The notes beneath the pieces are model-generated. The model made no database searches and was not told where the DNA came from. It worked only from the letters and a program-made list of their open reading frames with translations. A stretch of DNA of 64,000 bases, taken from assembly GCA_027620445.1 (NCBI GenBank), contig JAQBYG010000001.1, positions 5,115 through 69,114 on the forward strand. Reading direction: 5' to 3'. Of this stretch, positions 1 through 48,752 are shown in pieces (the stretch's first letter is position 1; each line of letters starts with the position of its first letter). This stretch comes from a bacterium (GTDB lineage: Bacteria > Patescibacteriota > Microgenomatia > UBA1400 > PJMF01). The position numbers were made by a program, and so were the translations under genes.

Positions 1-1008
1 GAGCAAACGAATGATGTCATCTGCAAATGCTTGCAAGTTTCCATCAGGCGCGAGCAAGCCAGTCTCGTTGTGTAGAATAATTTCATTTCCTGGCCCATGA
101 TCAAAGGCGACTACAGCTTTGCCGAGAGCCATTCCCTCACAAGCAACTAATCCAAAACCCTCGAGCGGCCAAATTGATGGAACCGCGCACACCCTTGCCT
201 TCGCTAAGATTTCCAACGCATCGGGAACTCGGCCCATAAACGTGATAGAGTCCTGCACTCGAAGTTTCTTCGCAAGATGGCGTACCGTTGGTAGAAAGGA
301 CCCTTCCCCTACGAGAGTCAAGTGTGCACGAGGAACTTTTTTTAGAACCAATGCGAAAATGTGTACCAATACATCCTGTCCTTTACCTTTTTCCATGCGA
401 GAAATGCAAACGATCTCTGGTTTTTTTGATAACACTGTAATCGACTTACGTTGTATTCTCCTCCCACAAGGGATCATGGTGAGTTGCTCTTTTTTTAAAA
501 GATTTTCAGACAACAATCCACGCTGAGAATGGCGTGATGACGTAATCACTGTATCAGTAAATCTGGCTGCCAACTTGTACCAAAATCGAGGTACTCCCAA
601 AAACTTTTTAAATAAAGTAGATAACGGAGCAAACTCTATCCAAACAACTCGAACACCAAGCAGATACGCCCACCAGGAAACAAACAACTTTTCCGCAAAA
701 CCAGACACAAGAAAAACATCTCGCTCGCGCTCTCGCCAGACAATGATTCCGTAGATAACCCAAGCTGCAGGAAGCAGTGCCACTGCTTTGAGCAAACCTT
801 TCCAGTCGCCGATAATGTCTATTTCTACGGGGATGTGCCGGGAGACAATACCTTCTTTTTGCAGTAACTGCTGAAACGACCGATGATTTGTATATGACGA
901 AACAGTGTACTTATTTTGTTGTAGCTCACTAAGGAGTTCACTGACAAACGTCTCTGCGCCACCCATCCCAAATGTTTGCGAAATGTAGCAGATAGAAAGT
1001 GATCTCAT
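1..1008 (-). CDS. Glycosyltransferase family 1 (GT4-like), partial; N-terminus at 1008, C-terminus runs off the window start
   Basis: Minus-strand frame starting ATG 1008..1006 (MRSLSICYISQTFGMGGAETFV...) is open to position 1. Contains the GT1 signature ...PSIWPLEGFGLVACEGMALGKAVVAFDHGP (E-x7-E). Start overlaps the stop of the downstream GT1 gene by 4 nt. Not in the ORF track because it has no stop inside the window. Confidence 0.7.
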   Translation of the reverse strand, partial: MRSLSICYISQTFGMGGAETFVSELLSELQQNKYTVSSYTNHRSFQQLLQKEGIVSRHIPVEIDIIGDWKGLLKAVALLPAAWVIYGIIVWRERERDVFLVSGFAEKLFVSWWAYLLGVRVVWIEFAPLSTLFKKFLGVPRFWYKLAARFTDTVITSSRHSQRGLLSENLLKKEQLTMIPCGRRIQRKSITVLSKKPEIVCISRMEKGKGQDVLVHIFALVLKKVPRAHLTLVGEGSFLPTVRHLAKKLRVQDSITFMGRVPDALEILAKARVCAVPSIWPLEGFGLVACEGMALGKAVVAFDHGPGNEIILHNETGLLAPDGNLQAFADDIIRLL

Positions 1009-2021
1009 CGATCACTCCAGAGCTCATGATATTGCCTAGCAAGTTTTTCCCACGTTTGTTTTTGGGCCCATTGTTCTGCTGCGAATGGTGATCTCATATC
1101 AGCTGCAAGCGCGGCAACAACTTCATCAGGTGTCGTGGCAATGTGTATCCATTTGGCAAAGGGAGTCAGCTGCAAGTAATCCTTTTTGAACCCTGTTTGG
1201 GCATATGCAATCACTAGTACTCCCGCTGACATACTCTCTAATATTGCTAAATATTGACTCACGAACGCATGCGAGTATTTACCAATGAGCAACCCTGCAT
1301 TTGGCACAAAGCCAAAAAAACGAACAGGCAATTTTTGTTTTTTGCAAACCTTTTCTGCCCATGTTCTTTCGCTGCCATCTCCGTAGACATCAAGCGACAC
1401 ACTCTGGCCATTTTGCTTTGCGATCGCAATGGCTGCAACATACTCTCGAAAACCAGTATCAGGCTCAAGTCGCCCAACAAAGACGGCTTTTTTGGTCGTG
1501 AACCGCGAAGACTTTTTGTGTGTAGTTAGAACCGCGCCATAGGAGATCTCATCGCTCACAACTCCATACCATTTTGTGTGAAATCCCCCAATGCACAAAT
1601 TCCCACGCGTCAGCTTCGCCGCTAACTGGTGCCAAAATTTTTGTTTACTACTTGGGCCATCGATTAACTCATAGCCGTGGAAAGTAATATAGATACGCTT
1701 CCACCATAGTACGGGTAGAAATGGCAGCAGCCACCAAAACACGTCGTGCACATGAATAATGTCTGATCGCAAGAATGCGAAGAGACGGCGAGCAACTCTA
1801 AACCATATCGCCAGCTTGTGTGAAAAAATCACATTCTCTTGCCCCAACAGCATACGCTCATTGAAAATGGTAGAGTGGTAACCCAGTTTTTGCAGCTCGG
1901 GAATAAGGTGTGACAAATGTGCTTCTACGCCACCAACGTCGGGTGCAGAGCGACGAGCAAGGTGGAGTACACTTTTTTGCATCTTCACCAGGTATAATAC
2001 TCTCTTATGCAGCTTTGGCAA
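1005..2021 (-). CDS. Glycosyltransferase family 1 (GT4-like)
   Basis: 338 aa. Architecture and motifs of GT-B retaining glycosyltransferases (ARRSAPDVGGVEAHLSHLIPELQKLG N-terminal sugar-acceptor half). Tandem with the upstream partial GT1. Confidence 0.75.
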   Translation of the reverse strand: MPKLHKRVLYLVKMQKSVLHLARRSAPDVGGVEAHLSHLIPELQKLGYHSTIFNERMLLGQENVIFSHKLAIWFRVARRLFAFLRSDIIHVHDVFWWLLPFLPVLWWKRIYITFHGYELIDGPSSKQKFWHQLAAKLTRGNLCIGGFHTKWYGVVSDEISYGAVLTTHKKSSRFTTKKAVFVGRLEPDTGFREYVAAIAIAKQNGQSVSLDVYGDGSERTWAEKVCKKQKLPVRFFGFVPNAGLLIGKYSHAFVSQYLAILESMSAGVLVIAYAQTGFKKDYLQLTPFAKWIHIATTPDEVVAALAADMRSPFAAEQWAQKQTWEKLARQYHELWSDR

Positions 2022-3062
2022 AATAGCAATGCACCGATAATCGGTCTCTCACCCATGGACGGCGTGACCGATCTTCCGTATCGACATATCTACAAAAAGT
2101 ACGGTAACCCTGCAGTGATGTATACAGAGTTTGCGAGTGTTGAAGGCTTATGTCGTGGAGCAGCGCAATTGCTCAAAGACTTTTTGTATGACGAAACCCA
2201 ACGGCCGATCGTGGCGCAAATTTATGGCACAACTCCCAAGTTCTTTCGCCAAATGGCTACAGTCCTTTGTGAGCTTGGATTTGATGGTGTTGATATCAAC
2301 ATGGGTTGCCCTGCCAAAAATGTGGCACATAGTGGCGCGGGTGCTGCGCTCATCAAGACTCCAGACCTGGCACAAGAGATCGTGAGAGAAACAAAAGCGG
2401 GTGTCGAAGACTGGCTGCAAGGAATTGCAGTGAGTGATTTGCCTGATATAACGACAGAAATTGCCAAGATTGTCCAAACGCGTCACGACGCCCTGCCGCA
2501 AGCGTATCAAGAAAAAAGAGCCATTCCGGTGAGTGTCAAAACACGCGTCGGGTATGACAAGCCAGTGATAAGCGATTGGATCCCTCGCCTGCTTGAACTT
2601 GCACCCGCGTGTATCGCGCTGCACGGCCGCACCCTTCGCCAACAATATTCAGGACTGGCAGACTGGGAACGGATTGGTGAGGCGGTTGAGCTGGCGTCTG
2701 GAACCAACACCCTGATGCTTGGTAACGGCGATGTCGATTCTCTCGCTACTGCGCACGAGCGGATAACAACCTATAAACTCGATGGGGTGCTGATCGGACG
2801 AGCGAGTTTCGGCAATCCGTATATTTTCAAGGAAGCGGTCAGTGTGGATGACCCATCACTCTTTTCGATTGCCATCGAACACGCACAGTTGTTTGAAGAC
2901 ACCTATCAACAAAACGATCACTATGCTTTTTTGCCCATGCGCAAAAACTTGGGCTGGTATGTGCGCTCTATTCCCAATGCAAAAGAAGTGCGAGCAGAAC
3001 TCTTCCAGGCTAATTCTGGTGAGCAAGTCAGAACGATACTTACGCGCTACGGGCTGGTGTAA
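2007..3062 (+). CDS. dus: tRNA-dihydrouridine synthase (Dus family)
   Basis: 351 aa. MDGVTDLPYRHIYKKYG..., the FMN-binding TIM barrel, and the catalytic Cys in DINMGCPAKNV, characteristic of DusB/NifR3. Confidence 0.85.
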   Translation: MQLWQNSNAPIIGLSPMDGVTDLPYRHIYKKYGNPAVMYTEFASVEGLCRGAAQLLKDFLYDETQRPIVAQIYGTTPKFFRQMATVLCELGFDGVDINMGCPAKNVAHSGAGAALIKTPDLAQEIVRETKAGVEDWLQGIAVSDLPDITTEIAKIVQTRHDALPQAYQEKRAIPVSVKTRVGYDKPVISDWIPRLLELAPACIALHGRTLRQQYSGLADWERIGEAVELASGTNTLMLGNGDVDSLATAHERITTYKLDGVLIGRASFGNPYIFKEAVSVDDPSLFSIAIEHAQLFEDTYQQNDHYAFLPMRKNLGWYVRSIPNAKEVRAELFQANSGEQVRTILTRYGLV

Positions 3063-3066
3063 ATGC

Positions 3067-3072
3067 TATAAT
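3067..3072 (+). promoter_or_regulatory. Candidate -10 box (TATAAT) 15 nt upstream of tRNA-Val
   Basis: Exact TATAAT hexamer immediately after the dus stop and before the tRNA 5' end. No convincing -35 identified. Confidence 0.3.
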
Positions 3073-3086
3073 CGCTAGAGTTTCTT

Positions 3087-3163
3087 GGTCGCATAGCTCA
3101 GTTGGTTAGAGCGCTGCATTCACATTGCAGAGGTCAAAGGTTCGAATCCTTTTGCGACCACCA
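3087..3163 (+). tRNA. tRNA-Val (anticodon CAC), CCA encoded
   Basis: Cloverleaf read by hand: acceptor GGTCGCA/TGCGACC, D-arm GCTC-AGTTGGTTA-GAGC, anticodon stem CTGCA/TGCAG with loop TTCACAT (CAC), T-arm AGGTC/GGTTCGAATCC-like AAAGG-TTCGAAT-CCTTT, discriminator A, then CCA. Confidence 0.9.
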
Positions 3164-3351
3164 AGAAGTTGCGAGATATGTCATGATTCTATTTGATGTC
3201 CAAATTACAGCAGAAAAACAAGCGATTGTTCCCTAAGCCCTCTCTCACAGAAGAACCTTATCCATATAGAAATTTAATACGAATGAATCCGGTCTTTCAT
3301 ATTTTACTCGAACCAATGTCTAGTCCAGAATAACCTGTTACAATTATCTCC

Positions 3352-3930
3352 GTGATTCTCTCAAAGATAAATGTTAAAAAACTGTTAAAAAGAAGATTAC
3401 TACTAGCACTTGTAGTCATATCTCTCATTTTCTTTAGATACGATTTTGTGTTCTCTCTCTACTCTTATGCTGTTGCTCCTTATGACACTTTTTGGAGCAT
3501 CTTAAACACAAAAGTTTTTCACGACAACGCAGTGACTGGCTTGAGCCTGCAATATCTAGAAACTACCAATCCCAAATTTAATTTTGACAAAATCTTGAAA
3601 AACCAAAACGGTGAGGGCGGATACACAATTAGCATTTTTCTCAATAAGCTCAGAGTTGTCGCCCCAGATAAGAGCATTCTATTAGATAGCTCGCAACTCT
3701 TCCCATCATCATATTTAGTTTCTCACGCTTTGCAGGTGCTGGTGCACAATATTATCATTTTTTCTCTTGTATTTTTTCTCTACACAAGCATACGAGCAAA
3801 TAATTTCCGCCTAAATTTGGAGTATTTTAAAAGCACTTTTTCAATACCCATTATCATAGGACTCGGCATACCAATCACCCTCTTCCTGTTGTTTCTTATG
3901 CTTATACTAGTCACAAGGCCATTCATATAA
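3352..3930 (+). CDS. Hypothetical polytopic membrane protein
   Basis: 192 aa. Several hydrophobic helices and no recognisable domain. AT-rich relative to flanks. In the same frame as the next two ORFs (see findings). Confidence 0.4.
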   Translation: MILSKINVKKLLKRRLLLALVVISLIFFRYDFVFSLYSYAVAPYDTFWSILNTKVFHDNAVTGLSLQYLETTNPKFNFDKILKNQNGEGGYTISIFLNKLRVVAPDKSILLDSSQLFPSSYLVSHALQVLVHNIIIFSLVFFLYTSIRANNFRLNLEYFKSTFSIPIIIGLGIPITLFLLFLMLILVTRPFI

Positions 3931-38438: not shown

Positions 38439-38642
38439 GTGATGAAAAATATATTTCTGCAACAATTAGAAGAAAATGAAGAATCCAGACAAGTAAGAAT
38501 TCGCGTGTTTGGACCACCTCCTGCAAACGAAGACGAGGGCATTAGACCAGGAAAATCTGTGTCCGAAATCTTGAATGCAATGAAAAAAGCCTCGAAAGAA
38601 AATCTGCTGCGTGTCCCCCGAAGTAATGCAATCACCAACTAA
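38439..38642 (+). CDS. Small acidic protein, putative antitoxin partner of downstream PIN protein
   Basis: 67 aa. Overlaps the PIN gene start. No fold assignable. Confidence 0.3.
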
Positions 38643-39144
38643 GTACCCTTACTTACTGCTAGACACTTGTATAATCGAATACCTTCTTGATAAATATCAA
38701 CAACCTGCTGTTACACAACAAATTTCTGAGTGGGCTGGAGATTCTTTTGATTTAGCAATATCTGAAATTACCTATGCAGAATTAGTTGACGGTGCGTTTA
38801 AAGAAAAAATAGAGAAAGTAACCCGCTTACTTGATTCGTACACAAGATTTTGGGTTTTAAAAGAAATACTAAGAGCTGCGGGAATTATTTCGAATGTATA
38901 TAGAACGCAGGGCAATAGCACTGTTGGGTCAAGTTTATCGGATAAGGTGATAGCTGCCACAGCTTTTTCATATAATCTTCCTGTTATCACAGCTGATGTG
39001 AATGATTTTCCCTATCCATTTTTTACTAGCGATGCTAGTGAAAACATAAAATATAGAAAAAAGAACAAGGATCATTATATTGCAATCAGCATTCTCAAAC
39101 CAAATGTGACTATCCTCAACTATTGGTTTAGTAAAACTAAATAA
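38611..39144 (+). CDS. PIN-domain protein (VapC-like)
   Basis: YLLLDTCIIEYLL, ISEITYAEL, DKVIAATAFSYNLPVITADVNDF carry the conserved acidic residues of the PIN fold. AT-rich gene. Confidence 0.7.
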   Translation: MSPEVMQSPTKYPYLLLDTCIIEYLLDKYQQPAVTQQISEWAGDSFDLAISEITYAELVDGAFKEKIEKVTRLLDSYTRFWVLKEILRAAGIISNVYRTQGNSTVGSSLSDKVIAATAFSYNLPVITADVNDFPYPFFTSDASENIKYRKKNKDHYIAISILKPNVTILNYWFSKTK

Positions 39145-42254: not shown

Positions 42255-42408
42255 GCTATTTCTCCTTTAACTAGTCGCGGGGAATGTGCTGTAAGTATTC
42301 TGGAGAAAAGACATCTGAGTCTCAGCCTGCCATCTCTCTTGAATCCTCAACAGTTCACAATCCTCGCAAATTACTTCGAGTAGTATAGCACAGGTTGTCG
42401 AATAACTT

Positions 42409-43032
42409 TTATTCTGCGGTATAAACCGGATAAGCCATATCTTGAATGTCATCGATTACAAGATCCTCATTTGCCACAACAGTTTCTATTTTCACTTCCC
42501 CGTCTACAAAGATCTCCACTCTTCTAACACTCCCTTTTGACTGATAATCCTCCATTACGTCAAGCTCATCCCGTCCCAGCAAAGGCTGTTTATCCAAAAA
42601 CTGATAAAGAAAGAAAAGAGGGTCTCCGTGAGAGCAGATGATGTATGATTTTCCTGACGATCGATCCAAGCTCTCATAAAAGTCAACGATTCTGTCTTGA
42701 ATATCTTGGTTTGTTTCCCCACCCAGCTCATCAGTATGGGCAAAGAAATGACTCCAATCCTCTTCCCAATAACCTTGATAAGCAGAGTGTGTTTCAAGTA
42801 GTCGCTTGTCAAAGATTATCTCTACTTTGTCTCCAGCTATAGCTTGGCTTGTCTGCTTACATCGAAGTACGGAGCTACTATAAATTGCATCTACTTTTTT
42901 GCTGGCAAAATAATCTCTGAGCCTTTCTGCCTGAGTAATTCCTTGCTCAGACAGTGGCACTGGTAATCTGCCGGGCAGAATTTTTCTGGGATTTGCATAC
43001 TCACAGTGGCGCACAAGATAAAGGGTGGTCAC
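42409..43032 (-). CDS. Histidine phosphatase superfamily protein (phosphoglycerate-mutase-like)
   Basis: LYLVRHCEYANP (RHG-type catalytic His motif with G to C) and a C-terminal His region. Confidence 0.7.
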   Translation of the reverse strand: MTTLYLVRHCEYANPRKILPGRLPVPLSEQGITQAERLRDYFASKKVDAIYSSSVLRCKQTSQAIAGDKVEIIFDKRLLETHSAYQGYWEEDWSHFFAHTDELGGETNQDIQDRIVDFYESLDRSSGKSYIICSHGDPLFFLYQFLDKQPLLGRDELDVMEDYQSKGSVRRVEIFVDGEVKIETVVANEDLVIDDIQDMAYPVYTAE

Positions 43033-43033
43033 G

Positions 43034-43672
43034 TTATTTTTTTGTCCTTATAACCGCCACCCCCTGTGACTGTTCTGTTGGATACGCCCATGCCTTTGTA
43101 AATTGCGCAAATGAAACTTTGCGCTCCTTTTGCGGTGGTAAACCAGGATCCTGCAAAAAAAGATGATCGCCGCTGTGATTATAAATCAAAACAAAGTGGC
43201 CAGAGTAACCCGGCTCATTATTGAGTGCTTTCAAATTGACATTACAGATAACAAGAGCACTCTCGTCCAAAGCCGCTGTGATGTCGACTATATGCGCCTG
43301 TCGCGTTTCTCTTGAACTTTTTTTGATGAATTTTTGTGCGATTGCCTGCTCTTGTGGAATATCCGAGTGTTCAATCTGACTCTGCCCAACTGGTTTGCCA
43401 TAAAAATCAAGCAGGTACTTCTCACCTTGTTCTGCAAACTCCTGGTAGTCGAACAAGCTAATACTCTGCACCGACAAACCCTTTTCTGCCAACCAAAGCA
43501 AACCAGCTGTCGGCCAAGTCCATAATCCCTCAACCTTAGCGGAAATTTTTTCTAACTCCTTCCACAAATAATTTTCATGCGGGAAGTACTGCTTCAACAG
43601 CATCTTTAAAACTGATTGGTAGCAATGGGTGTTATCTGGGGTATTGGGGAAAAATGGTGGGGGGTTTTGCAT
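43034..43672 (-). CDS. Papain-like cysteine peptidase fold protein (peptidase C39-like domain)
   Basis: Candidate catalytic Cys in NTHCYQSVLKML and His in YSGHFVLIYNHSGDHLFLQDPG, with spacing like C39-like/BtrH-type domains. No signal peptide. Confidence 0.45.
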   Translation of the reverse strand: MQNPPPFFPNTPDNTHCYQSVLKMLLKQYFPHENYLWKELEKISAKVEGLWTWPTAGLLWLAEKGLSVQSISLFDYQEFAEQGEKYLLDFYGKPVGQSQIEHSDIPQEQAIAQKFIKKSSRETRQAHIVDITAALDESALVICNVNLKALNNEPGYSGHFVLIYNHSGDHLFLQDPGLPPQKERKVSFAQFTKAWAYPTEQSQGVAVIRTKK

Positions 43673-43678
43673 ACTATT

Positions 43679-44167
43679 TTATGAAAGCTTCACATCCTCT
43701 ATACTCAACTCCTTAGGATTATCATCAGCGCGCTTACCCGTTCGCACTATCCAACCCAAACTCAGTAGTTCATTTGCTCCATCTTCTGGTACATAGTCCG
43801 AATATTTTACTTCACCCTCAATACTCTGATAGTTGCCTTTAATCAATTGAACTACATATTGATAATCATGCGCATTTTCGAGTTTGTAGCGCCTACCTCT
43901 AAAAAGCAATTCTTGCTTGTTACCAATGTCCTCATCTGCAATTTCATCAAAAGGCTCTGGTGCTTTGTCAGAATAGAGCAACAATTCTTCACCAGGAATA
44001 ATGAGTAGCAGAGAGTGGTCATCAAAAATGGCTTTGAAATACCCCTCATCACCCAGATTAATTGAACGAAACTCTGCAAAGCCGACTATTTCTTTTTGCT
44101 TTCCTCTGATTGCAATTTTTCGGTTGGGATTTTCTAACAATGCATTTAGCAGTTCTTTGATTTTCAT
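43679..44167 (-). CDS. Hypothetical protein
   Basis: 162 aa acidic protein. 6-nt gap to the downstream C39-like gene. No recognisable motif. Confidence 0.4.
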   Translation of the reverse strand: MKIKELLNALLENPNRKIAIRGKQKEIVGFAEFRSINLGDEGYFKAIFDDHSLLLIIPGEELLLYSDKAPEPFDEIADEDIGNKQELLFRGRRYKLENAHDYQYVVQLIKGNYQSIEGEVKYSDYVPEDGANELLSLGWIVRTGKRADDNPKELSIEDVKLS

Positions 44168-44180
44168 AGCTTTCTCCTCT

Positions 44181-44531
44181 TTATACTCCCCTCGAAAGAT
44201 TAGAGGTTATATACGTATTTAAGCTCACACCCTCCTGTTTTGCCTGATGTGCCAAAGATCTATGTAAAAACTTTGGCAACCGCAGATGCAGCTTTCCGCT
44301 ATAGTCATCTCTTGCTGGCTCAGAAATCGAAATCTTTCGCTCCAATGCTGCCGTAATCCAAGCCTTTTTTGCATCCTCGATCATTGAGATTGCGGCTTGC
44401 TCTGAGTCAGCCTCAGAAAAACAACCAGGTAGTTCCTCCACCTCGACAAAATATGAACCGTCGCCATTCTTTTTGAGTCGAATTGTGTAGTCTAGATCTA
44501 GATAGTAGTTTAGTTGTTTATTTTGCTTCAT
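44181..44531 (-). CDS. hicB: HicB-family antitoxin
   Basis: YYLDLDYTIRLKKNGDGSYFVEVEELPGCFSEADSEQAAISMIEDA (HicB RNase-H-like N-domain), then RHH-like LHLRLPKFLHRSLAHQAKQEGVSLNTYITSNL. Confidence 0.8.
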   Translation of the reverse strand: MKQNKQLNYYLDLDYTIRLKKNGDGSYFVEVEELPGCFSEADSEQAAISMIEDAKKAWITAALERKISISEPARDDYSGKLHLRLPKFLHRSLAHQAKQEGVSLNTYITSNLSRGV

Positions 44532-44757
44532 TTTCGATGAGCTCCCTAACTCGCTTAACGTATATTGCTTTGATAAATGGTCGCTTATACGGCACAGTTA
44601 TTTGTTTTTCCTTTTTGTAGTACACATAGTGGCTACTGCCACCGCTCGGTTGCCTACAAGCAAATCCATGTTCTAACAAAATAGCGTCAAGCACTTCGAA
44701 ACGGATGTTCTTAGGACTAGTAGTGAGTTTTTTGACTCGTTTCTGACGCTTTGTCAC
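44518..44757 (-). CDS. hicA: HicA-family mRNA interferase toxin
   Basis: 79 aa basic protein. LEHGFACRQPSGGSSHYVYYKKEKQITVPYKRP matches the HicA dsRBD-like core (G-S-H motif). 14-nt overlap with hicB. Confidence 0.7.
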   Translation of the reverse strand: MTKRQKRVKKLTTSPKNIRFEVLDAILLEHGFACRQPSGGSSHYVYYKKEKQITVPYKRPFIKAIYVKRVRELIENEAK

Positions 44758-44795
44758 TCTTTATATGATACCATATGTGGTATCATATACAAGAA

Positions 44796-45395
44796 TCAGT
44801 CAACAATAATTTGAGTATAAATAAAACAGTGTTTCTTGATATATTTTACAAACTCAGCTTGCTTGGTTTTCGGCAATTTTTTTATGGCCTCATACAACTT
44901 CTTTTTCGCCAATCTCAAACTTCCAAATACGGCCGTTATGTTCACCACCCAATTTCTTCTTTCTTTCCGATATAAAATTGGAGAACTTCCTGTTGAATTA
45001 ATCCCATCTTTTCTCAAATTGTAATGGTGGGATAAACCATTGCGAACTCTCCAGAGTGCATTCGATTGTCTTTTATTCATTCCAAACCAAGTCTCTGCCG
45101 ATTCTTTGAAAAATTTTTGAGTCTCACCTTGTTTTGGAGATCGCATGTGCCAGACCCTAGACAAGCAATCTATCGCCGCAAAATAAGTCAGTAGGTAGGA
45201 AAAAATTGGCAAATGTAAGGTCAGATGTTCAAACAATTTGTCATCAATTTTTTCCTTACTTCTCAAACTATTAAAAAAAATGCCGTTGCAGAACTGCATG
45301 TCTCTGAATGCTACAAGTAAGACACTTTTTCTATTTGTGCCAATTTTAGTGAGCACGCCATCACTAATAAAAAACTCTTCAATGTAATCATTCAT
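44796..45395 (-). CDS. Hypothetical protein with candidate HEPN Rx4H motif
   Basis: 199 aa, very AT-rich gene. ALWRVRNGLSHHY contains R118-N-x3-H123 (plus-strand 45027..45044) in a predicted helical context. No other similarity recognised. Confidence 0.4.
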   Translation of the reverse strand: MNDYIEEFFISDGVLTKIGTNRKSVLLVAFRDMQFCNGIFFNSLRSKEKIDDKLFEHLTLHLPIFSYLLTYFAAIDCLSRVWHMRSPKQGETQKFFKESAETWFGMNKRQSNALWRVRNGLSHHYNLRKDGINSTGSSPILYRKERRNWVVNITAVFGSLRLAKKKLYEAIKKLPKTKQAEFVKYIKKHCFIYTQIIVD

Positions 45396-45415
45396 GTTAT
45401 GTTAAAAAGTAAACC

Positions 45416-46330
45416 TTAATTAAAATACCCCAACCCCCACCACTCGATTGGGTCAACAAATCGATAATTTCTATTCAACTTGGTAAGTTTCTCCATCTCA
45501 GCATCACTCAACTCAAAATCAAACACATTGGCATTTTCCGCAATCCGGTCTGGGTTGGTTGATTTTGGAATCACAACCAAACCGCGCTGCAGTGACCAGC
45601 GGATCAGCACCTGCGCAGGAGTCTTATTGTGTGCTTTCGCAATAGAAAGCACTGCTGCATCACTAATCGGCTTATTCGAAGCATCTCCGTGGGAACCGAG
45701 CGGTGAGTATGCAGTGACCGCAACATCCTTTGCCAAACAAAAGTTGACCAACTCTGGTTGGGCGTTGTAGGGATGGATCTCAACCTGGTTCATGACTGGT
45801 TTGACTTTGGCGTACGTGAGTAAATCAATCAACATGGCTGTAGTGAAGTTAGCTACACCAATAGATTTGACCAAACCTTTTTCAACCAACGACTCCATCG
45901 CGCGCCAAGTGTCTTGGATAGAGACAGGCTCGGTCATAATTAGGCCAGTTTCGTCGAGCGGTTCTTTTTCTTTACTTGGCTTGAATGCAATGCCCCAGTG
46001 GATGAGATAGAGATCTAGGTATTCAAGTTGTAAATCTGTCAAAGTTTGTCTACATGCTTCCTCAACTACATCGGGGTGGTGCTTATTATTCCAGAGTTTG
46101 CTCGTCACAAAAATATCTTCTCTGGCAACATCTCCTTGCGCAAAAACACGAGAAAAAGCTTCGCCCACTTCGGGCTCATTCATATAAATCGCTGCACAAT
46201 CGATGTGTCGATACCCTATCTTAAGCGCAGTTTCTACCGCTGCACCAACTTTGCCTGGTTCGGAGCGCCAGGTGCCGAGACCAAGCTGGGGCATAGTCTT
46301 GCCATTGTTGAGAGTGATAGAGTTGGTCAT
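45416..46330 (-). CDS. Aldo/keto reductase
   Basis: ITLNNGKTMPQLGLGTW, IGYRHIDCAAIY, and a C-terminal IPKS-type motif (VVIPKSTNPDRI). Confidence 0.85.
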   Translation of the reverse strand: MTNSITLNNGKTMPQLGLGTWRSEPGKVGAAVETALKIGYRHIDCAAIYMNEPEVGEAFSRVFAQGDVAREDIFVTSKLWNNKHHPDVVEEACRQTLTDLQLEYLDLYLIHWGIAFKPSKEKEPLDETGLIMTEPVSIQDTWRAMESLVEKGLVKSIGVANFTTAMLIDLLTYAKVKPVMNQVEIHPYNAQPELVNFCLAKDVAVTAYSPLGSHGDASNKPISDAAVLSIAKAHNKTPAQVLIRWSLQRGLVVIPKSTNPDRIAENANVFDFELSDAEMEKLTKLNRNYRFVDPIEWWGLGYFN

Positions 46331-46373
46331 ATGGGTTGATTCTATCATCATCGTCGAGTACCATACCCCTACC

Positions 46374-46913
46374 GTGCTGTCAGAACTCATCTCGCTCCTC
46401 AGTTATCTCGGGATTACCGCACAAAGTGTGGTTCCCATCGGGATTGTGGGATTTTTCCTCTGGTGGTCACTGTCCAAAAAATTAGCGCAGGTAGAAGATA
46501 GAACGGCCGATATCGAAAAAAGCGTCGTCGAAATCCAAGGAATTTTGACCAATAAGTATCGCCTAAAGTTTCAACAAAGTATTGCTAGTAAATACGGCAA
46601 GTCCAATAGTCCCATCGTACTGAAGTCGACATTTAAACCATTTATAACCAAGCCAAAGCTGGATAAACAGATAGAAACGAAAAAACCACAGCTGCTAGAG
46701 TGGCTCGAGGACCAAGAGCCGCAGACTGGCCTCGATGCCCAAGATGCTATATCTGCGCTTGTGCTTTCAGACGAAATTGACCATTTTCTAGATTTGAAAT
46801 CCTACAAGCAGTACCTGTATGAACAGGGTAAAACCTCGGAGGATGCACAAGGCATCCTCATCCTCTATTTATTTGAGGTCTTGATTCCGGAACTGAAAAT
46901 TTCGAAGGCGTAA
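46374..46913 (+). CDS. Hypothetical membrane-anchored protein
   Basis: Track ORF 46203..46913 trimmed to the first in-frame GTG after the oppositely oriented AKR start. N-terminal TM (VVPIGIVGFFLWWSL), then a charged domain. Confidence 0.35.
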   Translation: MLSELISLLSYLGITAQSVVPIGIVGFFLWWSLSKKLAQVEDRTADIEKSVVEIQGILTNKYRLKFQQSIASKYGKSNSPIVLKSTFKPFITKPKLDKQIETKKPQLLEWLEDQEPQTGLDAQDAISALVLSDEIDHFLDLKSYKQYLYEQGKTSEDAQGILILYLFEVLIPELKISKA

Positions 46914-47273: not shown

Positions 47274-48752
47274 CTACTCTGCAATGTGGTACGCAACCAC
47301 TCTATCCCCAACCTCAAACTTGAGTTTTGACTGTTTGAAAACTAAGCCTGCTTCACCTTTAGTCTTGACAGAATCTACCTCTTCTTTGCCATGCCGCATG
47401 CTCTTGATGGTTGGTGCGCCAATGCGGTCTTCACCTCTGGCAAGATAAAAGGTATCGGCTTTTTTGATCTCACCAGTTTTTACCTTGATGCCAGCAATAC
47501 GCTCGCCCCGCACCTCAAAAATTTGCAGGATCTCAGCTTCACCAGTCACCACCTCATCGAGTGTTGGATCGATCAACTTGAGCATCTGCTTTTGCAAGTT
47601 TTCGATCAATTCGTAAATAACGTCGTATGACTTAACCCGTACTTTTGCTTGTTTTGCTAAGTTGAGTATCTGCTTGGAAACTTTGGAGTGGAAACTGACA
47701 ACTAATGCACCCGTAGCAGCAGCCAGCTCTATATCTGCCTCACTAACTTCGCCCACTGCAGAGAAAAGTAACTCCGTGCTTTCCGGATCGAGCGTGTCTA
47801 CAATTGCTTCGAGCGTCCCTTGGACGTCGGCACGAATAATCAGCTTCAGGCGTGGTTTGTCATCGAGTAAAAAGTTAAAGTCGAGATCGGTCAGTTCTTG
47901 GCTCATGGCTGCAGTCATCTCTGGTTGAGCTTCTGGTTTTGCCGATTCTGCGACTGCAGTATACTCTGCAGCCTGGTCATGAACAACGGCACCAACAGCA
48001 GGAACCGATTTAAATCCGACTATCTCCGCTGGACTACCTGGTGTGACCGCGTCAACCATCTTGCCAAGTGGATCCAACAGCTGTTTGACTCTACCGTCTG
48101 CTTCTGCGGCAACGATATCCTGGCGCAAACGAAGAGTGCCAGCACGGACAATAACAGAAGCGATTGAGCCGCGACGCGAATCCTTGGAAGACTCGATCAC
48201 GACAGCTTCAAGTGGTGCATCGGGATCTGCCTTGAGTTCATTTAGTTCCGCGAGGAGCAAAATAGTATCGAGCAACGCATCGACTCCCTTGCCAGTTTTG
48301 GCAGAGAGCGGAATGGCTTCGACGTCACCGCCAAAACCTTGTACTAGAATACCGTGCTCAACAAGCTGTGATTTCGCCAGATCTGGTTGTGCATCTGGTA
48401 AATCCATTTTATTTATCGCGACGATGACTGGTAGTTTGGCCTCAGTGATGTGTCGGATCGACTCTATCGTCTGTGGCTTCACCCCATCATTGGCGGCTAC
48501 CACCAACACTACAATGTCGGTTACCTGCGCCCCACGGGCACGCATTTTGTTAAAAGCCGCGTGTCCAGGTGTGTCGATGAAGGTAATCAGCTGCTTTTTG
48601 TGCTCTATTTGATACGCGCCAATGTGCTGCGTGATGCCACCAGCCTCTTTAGCAGTGGTGCGCGATTTTCGAATAAAATCGAGCAAAGTTGTCTTGCCGT
48701 GGTCGACATGACCCATGATCGTCACTACTGGTGGTCGCGTTTGTACTGCCAT
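47274..48752 (-). CDS. infB: Translation initiation factor IF-2 (short form: G domain to C-terminus)
   Basis: PVVTIMGHVDHGKTTLLD, DTPGHAAF, NKMD, then domains II to C2. Confidence 0.9.
   Translation of the reverse strand: MAVQTRPPVVTIMGHVDHGKTTLLDFIRKSRTTAKEAGGITQHIGAYQIEHKKQLITFIDTPGHAAFNKMRARGAQVTDIVVLVVAANDGVKPQTIESIRHITEAKLPVIVAINKMDLPDAQPDLAKSQLVEHGILVQGFGGDVEAIPLSAKTGKGVDALLDTILLLAELNELKADPDAPLEAVVIESSKDSRRGSIASVIVRAGTLRLRQDIVAAEADGRVKQLLDPLGKMVDAVTPGSPAEIVGFKSVPAVGAVVHDQAAEYTAVAESAKPEAQPEMTAAMSQELTDLDFNFLLDDKPRLKLIIRADVQGTLEAIVDTLDPESTELLFSAVGEVSEADIELAAATGALVVSFHSKVSKQILNLAKQAKVRVKSYDVIYELIENLQKQMLKLIDPTLDEVVTGEAEILQIFEVRGERIAGIKVKTGEIKKADTFYLARGEDRIGAPTIKSMRHGKEEVDSVKTKGEAGLVFKQSKLKFEVGDRVVAYHIAE

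Follow-up and report, generated by a model that had tools for sequence, protein, structure and literature searches.

Locus of ORF199

As listed in Table 1, an open reading frame (ORF) encoding a 199-aa protein, designated ORF199 in this study, is found on the minus strand of a 64,000-nt stretch of the bacterial contig JAQBYG010000001.1 (positions 5,115 to 69,114; the whole stretch is called the window). The gene lies in a variable islet of low GC content between an aldo-keto reductase (AKR) gene and the PNPase gene, together with hicA, hicB, orf162, a C39-like peptidase gene, and a histidine phosphatase gene. The ORF199 protein is identical to MDA1079127.1 of NCBI, a 'hypothetical protein' of an unclassified metagenome-assembled genome (MAG). 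In the initial annotation, which was made from the DNA sequence alone, ORF199 was regarded as a candidate HEPN RNase located next to hicAB. The segment WRVRNGLSHHY on which this proposal was based is indeed present in the ORF, with the R118 codon at 45042-45044 and the H123 codon at 45027-45029, giving the motif R118-N-x3-H123. The pattern R[NDH]xxxH arises in 4.5% of shuffled versions of the ORF199 protein. A HEPN-type motif by itself is weak evidence, and the weight is supplied by conservation and fold.

The stop codon of ORF199 (44796-44798) is followed by a gap of 38 nt to the GTG start codon of hicA (44757), as had been described. ORF199 had also been counted among the most AT-rich genes. 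Its GC content is 35.3%, compared with 47.2% for the window, and corresponds to the 0.2 percentile among 600-nt windows. The GC content at third codon positions is 37% in ORF199 versus 47-49% in the neighbouring housekeeping genes for PNPase, IF2, and AKR. On the other side, the ORF199 start codon lies 20 nt after the AKR stop codon. In this gap, neither a terminator nor a sigma-70-like promoter was predicted by a scan that does not cover promoters of the candidate phyla radiation (CPR). ORF199 may be read through from AKR on a shared transcript.

Searches of Pfam, NCBIfam, PADLOC, and PDB sequences with the ORF199 protein gave nothing significant. Across Pfam, NCBIfam, PADLOC, and PHROGs, only matches at noise level were seen (BET, ATCase, and a weak phrog named 'HNH').

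Table 1. Features of the ORF199 islet, with positions counted from the first nucleotide of the window.
Feature	Position	Strand	Remarks
Low-GC variable islet flanked by the AKR and PNPase genes	42400..45415	(-)	About 3 kb; based on comparison with the related genomes L010 and L011, composition, and Pfam
ORF199 coding sequence	44796..45395	(-)	199 aa, ATG start; full length compared with homologues of about 200 aa; AlphaFold2 pLDDT 95.6
D32 codon	45300..45302	(-)	Nearly invariant acidic residue; first long helix (25-36)
D76-x3-R80 codons (AIDCLSRV)	45156..45170	(-)	Helix 64-83; counterpart of Ex3[KR], the second HEPN motif
R118-N-G-L-S-H123-H-Y125 codons	45021..45044	(-)	Rx4HxY form of Rx4H; C-terminal end of helix 108-124
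Three-stranded beta meander, residues about 131-152	44942..45005	(-)	DSSP of the AlphaFold2 model
Perfect 12-nt inverted repeat	44762..44789		TATATGATACCA-N4-TGGTATCATATA; separates the ORF199 stop from the hicA start; conserved upstream of hicA in L010
hicA-like gene	44518..44757	(-)	79 aa, GTG start; overlaps hicB
hicB	44181..44531		Pfam HicB, 1.7e-12
orf162	43679..44167	(-)	13 nt after hicB; GC 38.7%

A conserved family without a family model

Is ORF199 an orphan, as the initial annotation stated? A word-indexed homologue search gave only two homologues, both 47% identical to the ORF199 protein. The word-indexed search with a profile still gave only three to five proteins, and an exhaustive HMMER search was needed. 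An HMMER profile of three sequences, run against 1.84 billion cluster representatives, retrieved 35 metagenomic clusters, as defined at 50% identity. In 29 of these clusters the E-value was below 1e-10, and nearly all of the proteins are 180-220 aa in length and can be aligned end to end. ORF199 is thus an orphan in terms of annotation, as no family model matches it, and not in the sense of a singleton. Two alignments are used below: A2, consisting of 37 sequences with 23-47% identity to the query ORF199 protein, and A7, consisting of 41 full-length members including four recovered by a pattern scan of metagenomes.

The residues of the motif are highly conserved. In A2, R118 and H123 are each present in 36 of the 37 sequences, and the sequences lacking the R or the H are truncated fragments. 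In A7, both residues are invariant (41/41), and the conservation that had been suggested as a check of the HEPN proposal was found. F96 is shared by all 37 sequences of A2 and W115 by 34, and N119, the polar residue after the arginine pointed out in the initial annotation, is kept in 32. The position of Y125 is occupied by Y in 34 and by F in two of the 37 sequences. At the R80 position, 35 sequences have R and two have K (R/K in 37/37), and at the D76 position 34 have D and two have E (D/E in 36/36). The D32 position also has D in 34 and E in two of 36 sequences, and this residue may serve either the structure or the active site. Among the 41 full-length members, N119 and Y125 are retained in 90% or more. 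In summary, members of the family carry the signature AID-L-x-R-V ... L-W-x-L-R-N-x-x-S-H-x-Y.

For none of the 37 members does a match in Pfam or PADLOC rise above threshold. In PADLOC-DB v2, these members gave only three unrelated single matches with E > 0.003, and the ORF199 protein gave none. The consensus of the family hidden Markov model (HMM) gave nothing in Pfam, and among the PDB sequences, neither the single protein nor the A2 and A7 profiles found a HEPN, the matches being due to chance. Below the Pfam thresholds, member P0013 matches HEPN_Cthe2314 (residues 103-153, E 0.0031) and RiboL-PSP-HEPN (residues 104-134, E 0.015), and member P0006 matches NTase_sub_bind (residues 96-136, E 0.054). 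All three are families of the HEPN clan, and the matches lie over the motif helix.

The N-terminal patterns of the family found no member in 185,579 species genomes of GTDB. A degenerate DNA motif pattern, which covers 57% of the known members, gave ten matches and no family member in the viral contigs of IMG/VR, and 120 matches including four clear members and three distant ones in metagenomes. Distant proteins with both motifs (xIDxLxxxR ... LWxIRNxxxHxY) are encoded in L118 (1-465, minus strand), L109 (22-702, minus strand), L186 (5863-6552, minus strand), and L214 (451-1032, plus strand), with family-HMM E-values of 1e-11 to 1e-2. These sequences suggest that a wider unannotated clade may surround the ORF199 family. 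An hhalign comparison of the family with the protein of L147 gave a probability of 82% over the 19-column motif only. Since L147 had been chosen by that motif, this comparison is circular and was not used.

Predicted fold

A model made by AlphaFold2 (AF2) on a three-sequence alignment had a predicted local distance difference test (pLDDT) score of 50 and was discarded. On the alignment of 37 sequences, the five models had pLDDT scores of 94.9-95.6 and a predicted template modelling score of 0.91. According to DSSP, the helices consist of residues 25-36, 39-46, 52-60, 64-83, 92-104, 108-124, 153-172, and 176-189, while the meander at 131-152 and the strands 20-24 and 191-195 make an accessory sheet. 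The meander separates core helix 3 from helix 4 as an insertion. Minimal HEPN domains do not have the accessory sheet seen in this model, and the sheet may be an accessory or sensor element.

The HEPN domain is defined as a four-helix up-down bundle of two alpha-hairpins, frequently with an insert between helices 2 and 3, having an Rx4-6H motif with a polar residue (N, D, or H) right after the arginine, as well as a further conserved acidic residue in helix 2, usually as Ex3[KR] (Anantharaman et al. 2013, PMC3710099). The ORF199 model is a four-helix up-down bundle. The R118-N119-x3-H123 motif, conserved family-wide, ends helix 108-124 as core helix 3, and a loop and the beta insert precede helix 153-172 as helix 4. 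The helical bundle with the motif at helix 3, as foreseen in the initial annotation, is therefore present in the model. In addition, D76-x3-R80 lies within helix 64-83, and the insert between helices 2 and 3 is formed by a loop (84-91) and helix 92-104. The assignment of the core helices rests on helix order and motifs, not on structural alignment, and I infer the residue-level register with HepT and the three-dimensional proximity of the Dx3R and RNxxxH motifs.

In a Foldseek search against the PDB, no match was significant (best E 0.6), and the top-ranked entries were HepT-MntA complexes. The best match in BFVD was an unnamed viral protein (E 3e-3). The structural neighbours of the model are HEPN proteins, not HNH proteins. 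The conserved motif residues and the topology of the AF2 model both agree with the HEPN proposal, and it is very likely that ORF199 has a HEPN fold with intact catalytic motifs. Because they escape the sequence models of Pfam, NCBIfam, PADLOC, and PDB, the ORF199 proteins constitute a new, previously unclassified family of the known HEPN superfamily.

The variable islet between AKR and PNPase

The PNPase of the window is 88-91% identical to the PNPases of two Candidatus Paceibacterota (Patescibacteria/CPR) MAGs, L010 and L011. In L011, the gene order is IF2-S15-AKR-PNPase, and the slot between AKR and PNPase is empty. In L010, AKR is followed by the genes of a Gp49/HigB-like toxin, an HTH_3 antitoxin, and an alpha/beta hydrolase, and then by hicA-hicB-orf162-C39-PNPase. 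The order in the window is AKR-ORF199-hicA-hicB-orf162-C39-histidine phosphatase-PNPase. Thus, the sub-slot between AKR and hicA holds ORF199 in the window and higBA with the hydrolase in the nearest relative, L010. The DNA homology between the window and L010, which does not have ORF199, starts at the 12-nt inverted repeat. This palindrome is probably the HicB operator or the hicAB promoter region, and it likely marks the boundary of two independent cassettes.

Since hicAB has its own operator and belongs to a separate cassette, the adjacency of ORF199 and hicAB, which the initial annotation had emphasised, is coincidental. ORF199 was acquired horizontally as a cassette of one gene and occupies a variable slot for toxin/defence genes in a CPR genome, and in this Paceibacterota lineage the AKR-PNPase interval acts as a hotspot of integration. 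L012 has an orphan hicB adjoining PNPase. As for orf162, its product is 77% identical in L010, where the gene is syntenic, and it has no match in Pfam, NCBIfam, PADLOC, or PHROGs. This gene travels with hicAB, not with ORF199, and may be a third hicAB-linked gene.

Neighbours of the homologues

Does the ORF199 family have a partner gene? According to the initial annotation, an RNase with a single HEPN motif would need a neutralising partner or tight regulation; the need for a neutraliser encoded next to the gene is not supported. In the 13 family loci examined, no conserved partner gene was found, whether MNT, hicAB, or any other, and the neighbour differs in every locus. hicAB is absent from all 12 other family loci. 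An HEPN_AbiU2 gene (970-1689, plus strand) overlaps upstream of the family member in L005, and the genes of an N6/N4 DNA methylase and an MvaI/BcnI endonuclease lie directly upstream in L115. A Fic/DOC gene is convergent with the family member in L001, the only Fic gene in the 13 contexts, and GIY-YIG and NERD/UPF0102 genes are found nearby in L002. L004 has a divergent neighbour encoding 155 aa (128-595, minus strand) with the sequence RRYRNGVFHF, and L006 has a convergent neighbour encoding more than 401 aa (2194-3399, minus strand) and ending in TRNEVIHHG. Among the L004 and L006 neighbours there is also a gene for a transmembrane protein with a weak PycTM match. Ordinary housekeeping genes (IMPDH, RecQ, RRF, and L19) were seen as neighbours as well.

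Thus, the ORF199 family is a rare, mobile, stand-alone gene, often but not always found among toxin, restriction, or Abi genes. The presence of a second HEPN-type gene beside three members (L004, L005, and L006) may reflect a clustering of different HEPN genes. Two kinds of partners were rejected for ORF199 itself. Near the gene, neither tandem repeats nor an Rfam RNA were found that would indicate a type III RNA antitoxin. As for an MNT partner, the MNT signature GSx(9-11)DxD is absent from every ORF of at least 70 aa in the window.

Alternative explanations

It could be argued that ORF199 acts as the toxin in a two-component system and that its neutraliser has escaped recognition, being an unlinked or non-homologous antitoxin, or an AMPylase of MNT or Fic type that modifies Y125 as MntA does Y104 of HepT. 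HepT is characterised by the signature Rx4HxY, the tyrosine of which is poly-AMPylated by the MntA antitoxin (PMC7641770), and the R118...H123-H-Y125 sequence of ORF199 conforms to this signature. However, no ORF of the window has GSx10DxD, and no nucleotidyltransferase gene is found among the neighbours in the 13 family loci. Moreover, the neighbour varies by locus, with Fic in only one context, the Pfam HepT-like family does not match, and neither tandem repeats nor an Rfam RNA suggest an RNA antitoxin. A two-component system is therefore unlikely. It is still less probable that ORF199 is a catalytically inactive or ligand-binding HEPN, for example an adaptor or regulator that binds a nucleotide or substrate. 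Non-catalytic HEPNs are those without Rx4-6H (PMC3710099), whereas the R, the N, the H, and the acidic/basic pair of helix 2 are essentially invariant in the ORF199 family at an overall identity of 23-47%.

The genomic position of ORF199 invites two other explanations. The gene belongs to a co-directional array of translation and RNA-metabolism genes (PNPase, S15, and IF2) and is probably cotranscribed with AKR, as might be expected for a housekeeping RNA-processing enzyme of CPR bacteria. Such a function is very improbable for a gene that the two closest genomes do not have in the syntenic slot, whose composition is foreign to its genome, and whose family is extremely rare in the cluster representatives and was not found in GTDB with the N-terminal patterns. 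ORF199 also lies immediately upstream of hicA on the same strand and in the same low-GC islet, and it might be a third component of hicAB or an alternative toxin under the control of HicB. The hicAB pair is complete in itself and has a perfect palindrome of its own between ORF199 and hicA, L010 keeps the palindrome and hicA-hicB-orf162-C39 without ORF199, and the other loci of the family are without hicAB; a functional link with hicAB is thus extremely unlikely. Finally, the weak match to phrog_4578 'HNH endonuclease' (E 0.0041, residues 116-183) and the beta hairpin and subsequent helix of residues 141-172 in the model recall a DNA endonuclease of the HNH type (beta-beta-alpha-metal). This explanation is hardly tenable, since neither the hairpin nor the next helix has a conserved His, Asn, Asp, or Cys, no polar residue is conserved in 131-172, and the conserved polar residues are all in the helical bundle. 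Furthermore, no Pfam HNH family matches, and the structural neighbours are HEPNs.

Possible mechanism and role

By analogy with known HEPN proteins, ORF199 is proposed, with a probability of roughly 65%, to be a HEPN RNase that stands alone, is active as a dimer, and serves as an effector of the abortive-infection or toxin type. That the protein is an active RNase is probable by the same analogy, and the odds are about even that its role would be in defence/abortive infection or of the addiction type. As in characterised HEPN RNases, two copies of ORF199 would dimerise, and their two R118-N-x3-H123 motifs would build one composite RNA-cleaving site. D76 and R80 of helix 2 may assist this composite, metal-independent site. 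H123 would activate the 2'-OH, while R118 and N119 would stabilise the transition state. The cleavage of RNA would leave 2',3'-cyclic phosphate ends and could lead to growth arrest. Without a dedicated antitoxin, ORF199 might be kept inactive until triggered, either by low expression or by its own accessory beta-sheet and N-terminal elements. Control of this kind can be likened to that of the single-gene Abi HEPNs.

A further speculation, to which I would give only a small chance, is that the ORF199 family represents a new single-gene abortive-infection system in CPR toxin slots, being a self-contained HEPN RNase that has no antitoxin and senses infection or stress through its extra beta-sheet/N-terminal module. 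In a variant of this speculation, the tyrosine of Rx4HxY may be switched off in trans by an unlinked AMPylase, for example a Fic protein such as that encoded beside one homologue. If true, this variant would extend the neutralisation chemistry of HepT-MntA to a different enzyme class.

Few defence systems have been recognised in CPR/Patescibacteria. If the proposal is confirmed, the HEPN RNase superfamily gains a family that is invisible to standard annotation and defence-finder pipelines. The AKR-PNPase hotspot, where toxin-type cassettes (HEPN, hicAB, and higBA) are swapped between close relatives, bears on how ultra-small CPR bacteria carry toxin/defence genes. The advance is incremental, as toxins of the HEPN kind are well known. 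What makes the family interesting is that a conserved HEPN RNase, by all appearances active, is tolerated without a linked antitoxin.

Other features of the window

A solitary gene for a PIN-domain (VapC-like) protein of 177 aa (38611-39144, plus strand; Pfam PIN, 6.4e-09) lies in a strongly AT-rich patch, on the strand opposite to its neighbours. The most AT-rich patch of the window (3352-3930, plus strand) encodes a predicted membrane protein of 192 aa without a Pfam match. Between AKR and S15, about 500 nt (46391-46913) are absent in L010, where the gap is about 60 nt. These nucleotides encode the C-terminal part, about 170 aa, of a plus-strand ORF (46203-46913), which has one hydrophobic segment and no family match and whose 5' part is antisense to the AKR start. 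The segment 46391-46913 may be another small insertion. The IF2 gene (47274-48752, minus strand) encodes only 492 aa without the long N-terminal region, as would fit a reduced genome of the CPR/Patescibacteria, to which the PNPase relatives point.

Comparison with known HEPN systems

The single-gene AbiU2, AbiV, AbiD/AbiF, and AbiJ proteins differ from the ORF199 family in that the latter matches no Abi model of Pfam or PADLOC. Comparisons by hhalign of the family with the neighbouring AbiU2 and with the two neighbours having their own RNxxxH were not significant. As for the Cthe_2314-like and RiboL-PSP-HEPN families (PF18730 and PF18735), the only sub-threshold matches of P0013 are to these families and are centred on the RNxxxH helix. 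Against gathering thresholds of 27.1 and 28.4, the scores reach only 18 and 15.6 bits and concern one of the 37 members, and the ORF199 family does not belong to these families by Pfam standards.

The HI0074/NTase_sub_bind and HEPN-T proteins (PDB 1jog, 4nqf, 2hsb, and 1ylm) pair with minimal nucleotidyltransferases. Several of them do not have the full catalytic motif, whereas the ORF199 family keeps it strictly. In the HepT/DUF86 toxins of the HEPN-MNT systems (for example Shewanella SO_3166 and Aphanizomenon HEPN; PDB 5yep, 7ae2, 8xdj, and 7bxo), the MNT antitoxin gene adjoins the toxin gene, whereas none lies beside the genes of the ORF199 family in the loci examined. The Pfam HepT-like family (PF01934, DUF86) matches none of the 37 members at E <= 0.1. 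Compared with HepT, ORF199 is longer by about 70 residues; its N terminus is extended, and it has both an insert helix and a beta sheet inserted after helix 3 and before helix 4. The ORF199 family is structurally nearest to the HepT/HI0074 group, yet it is not a HepT.
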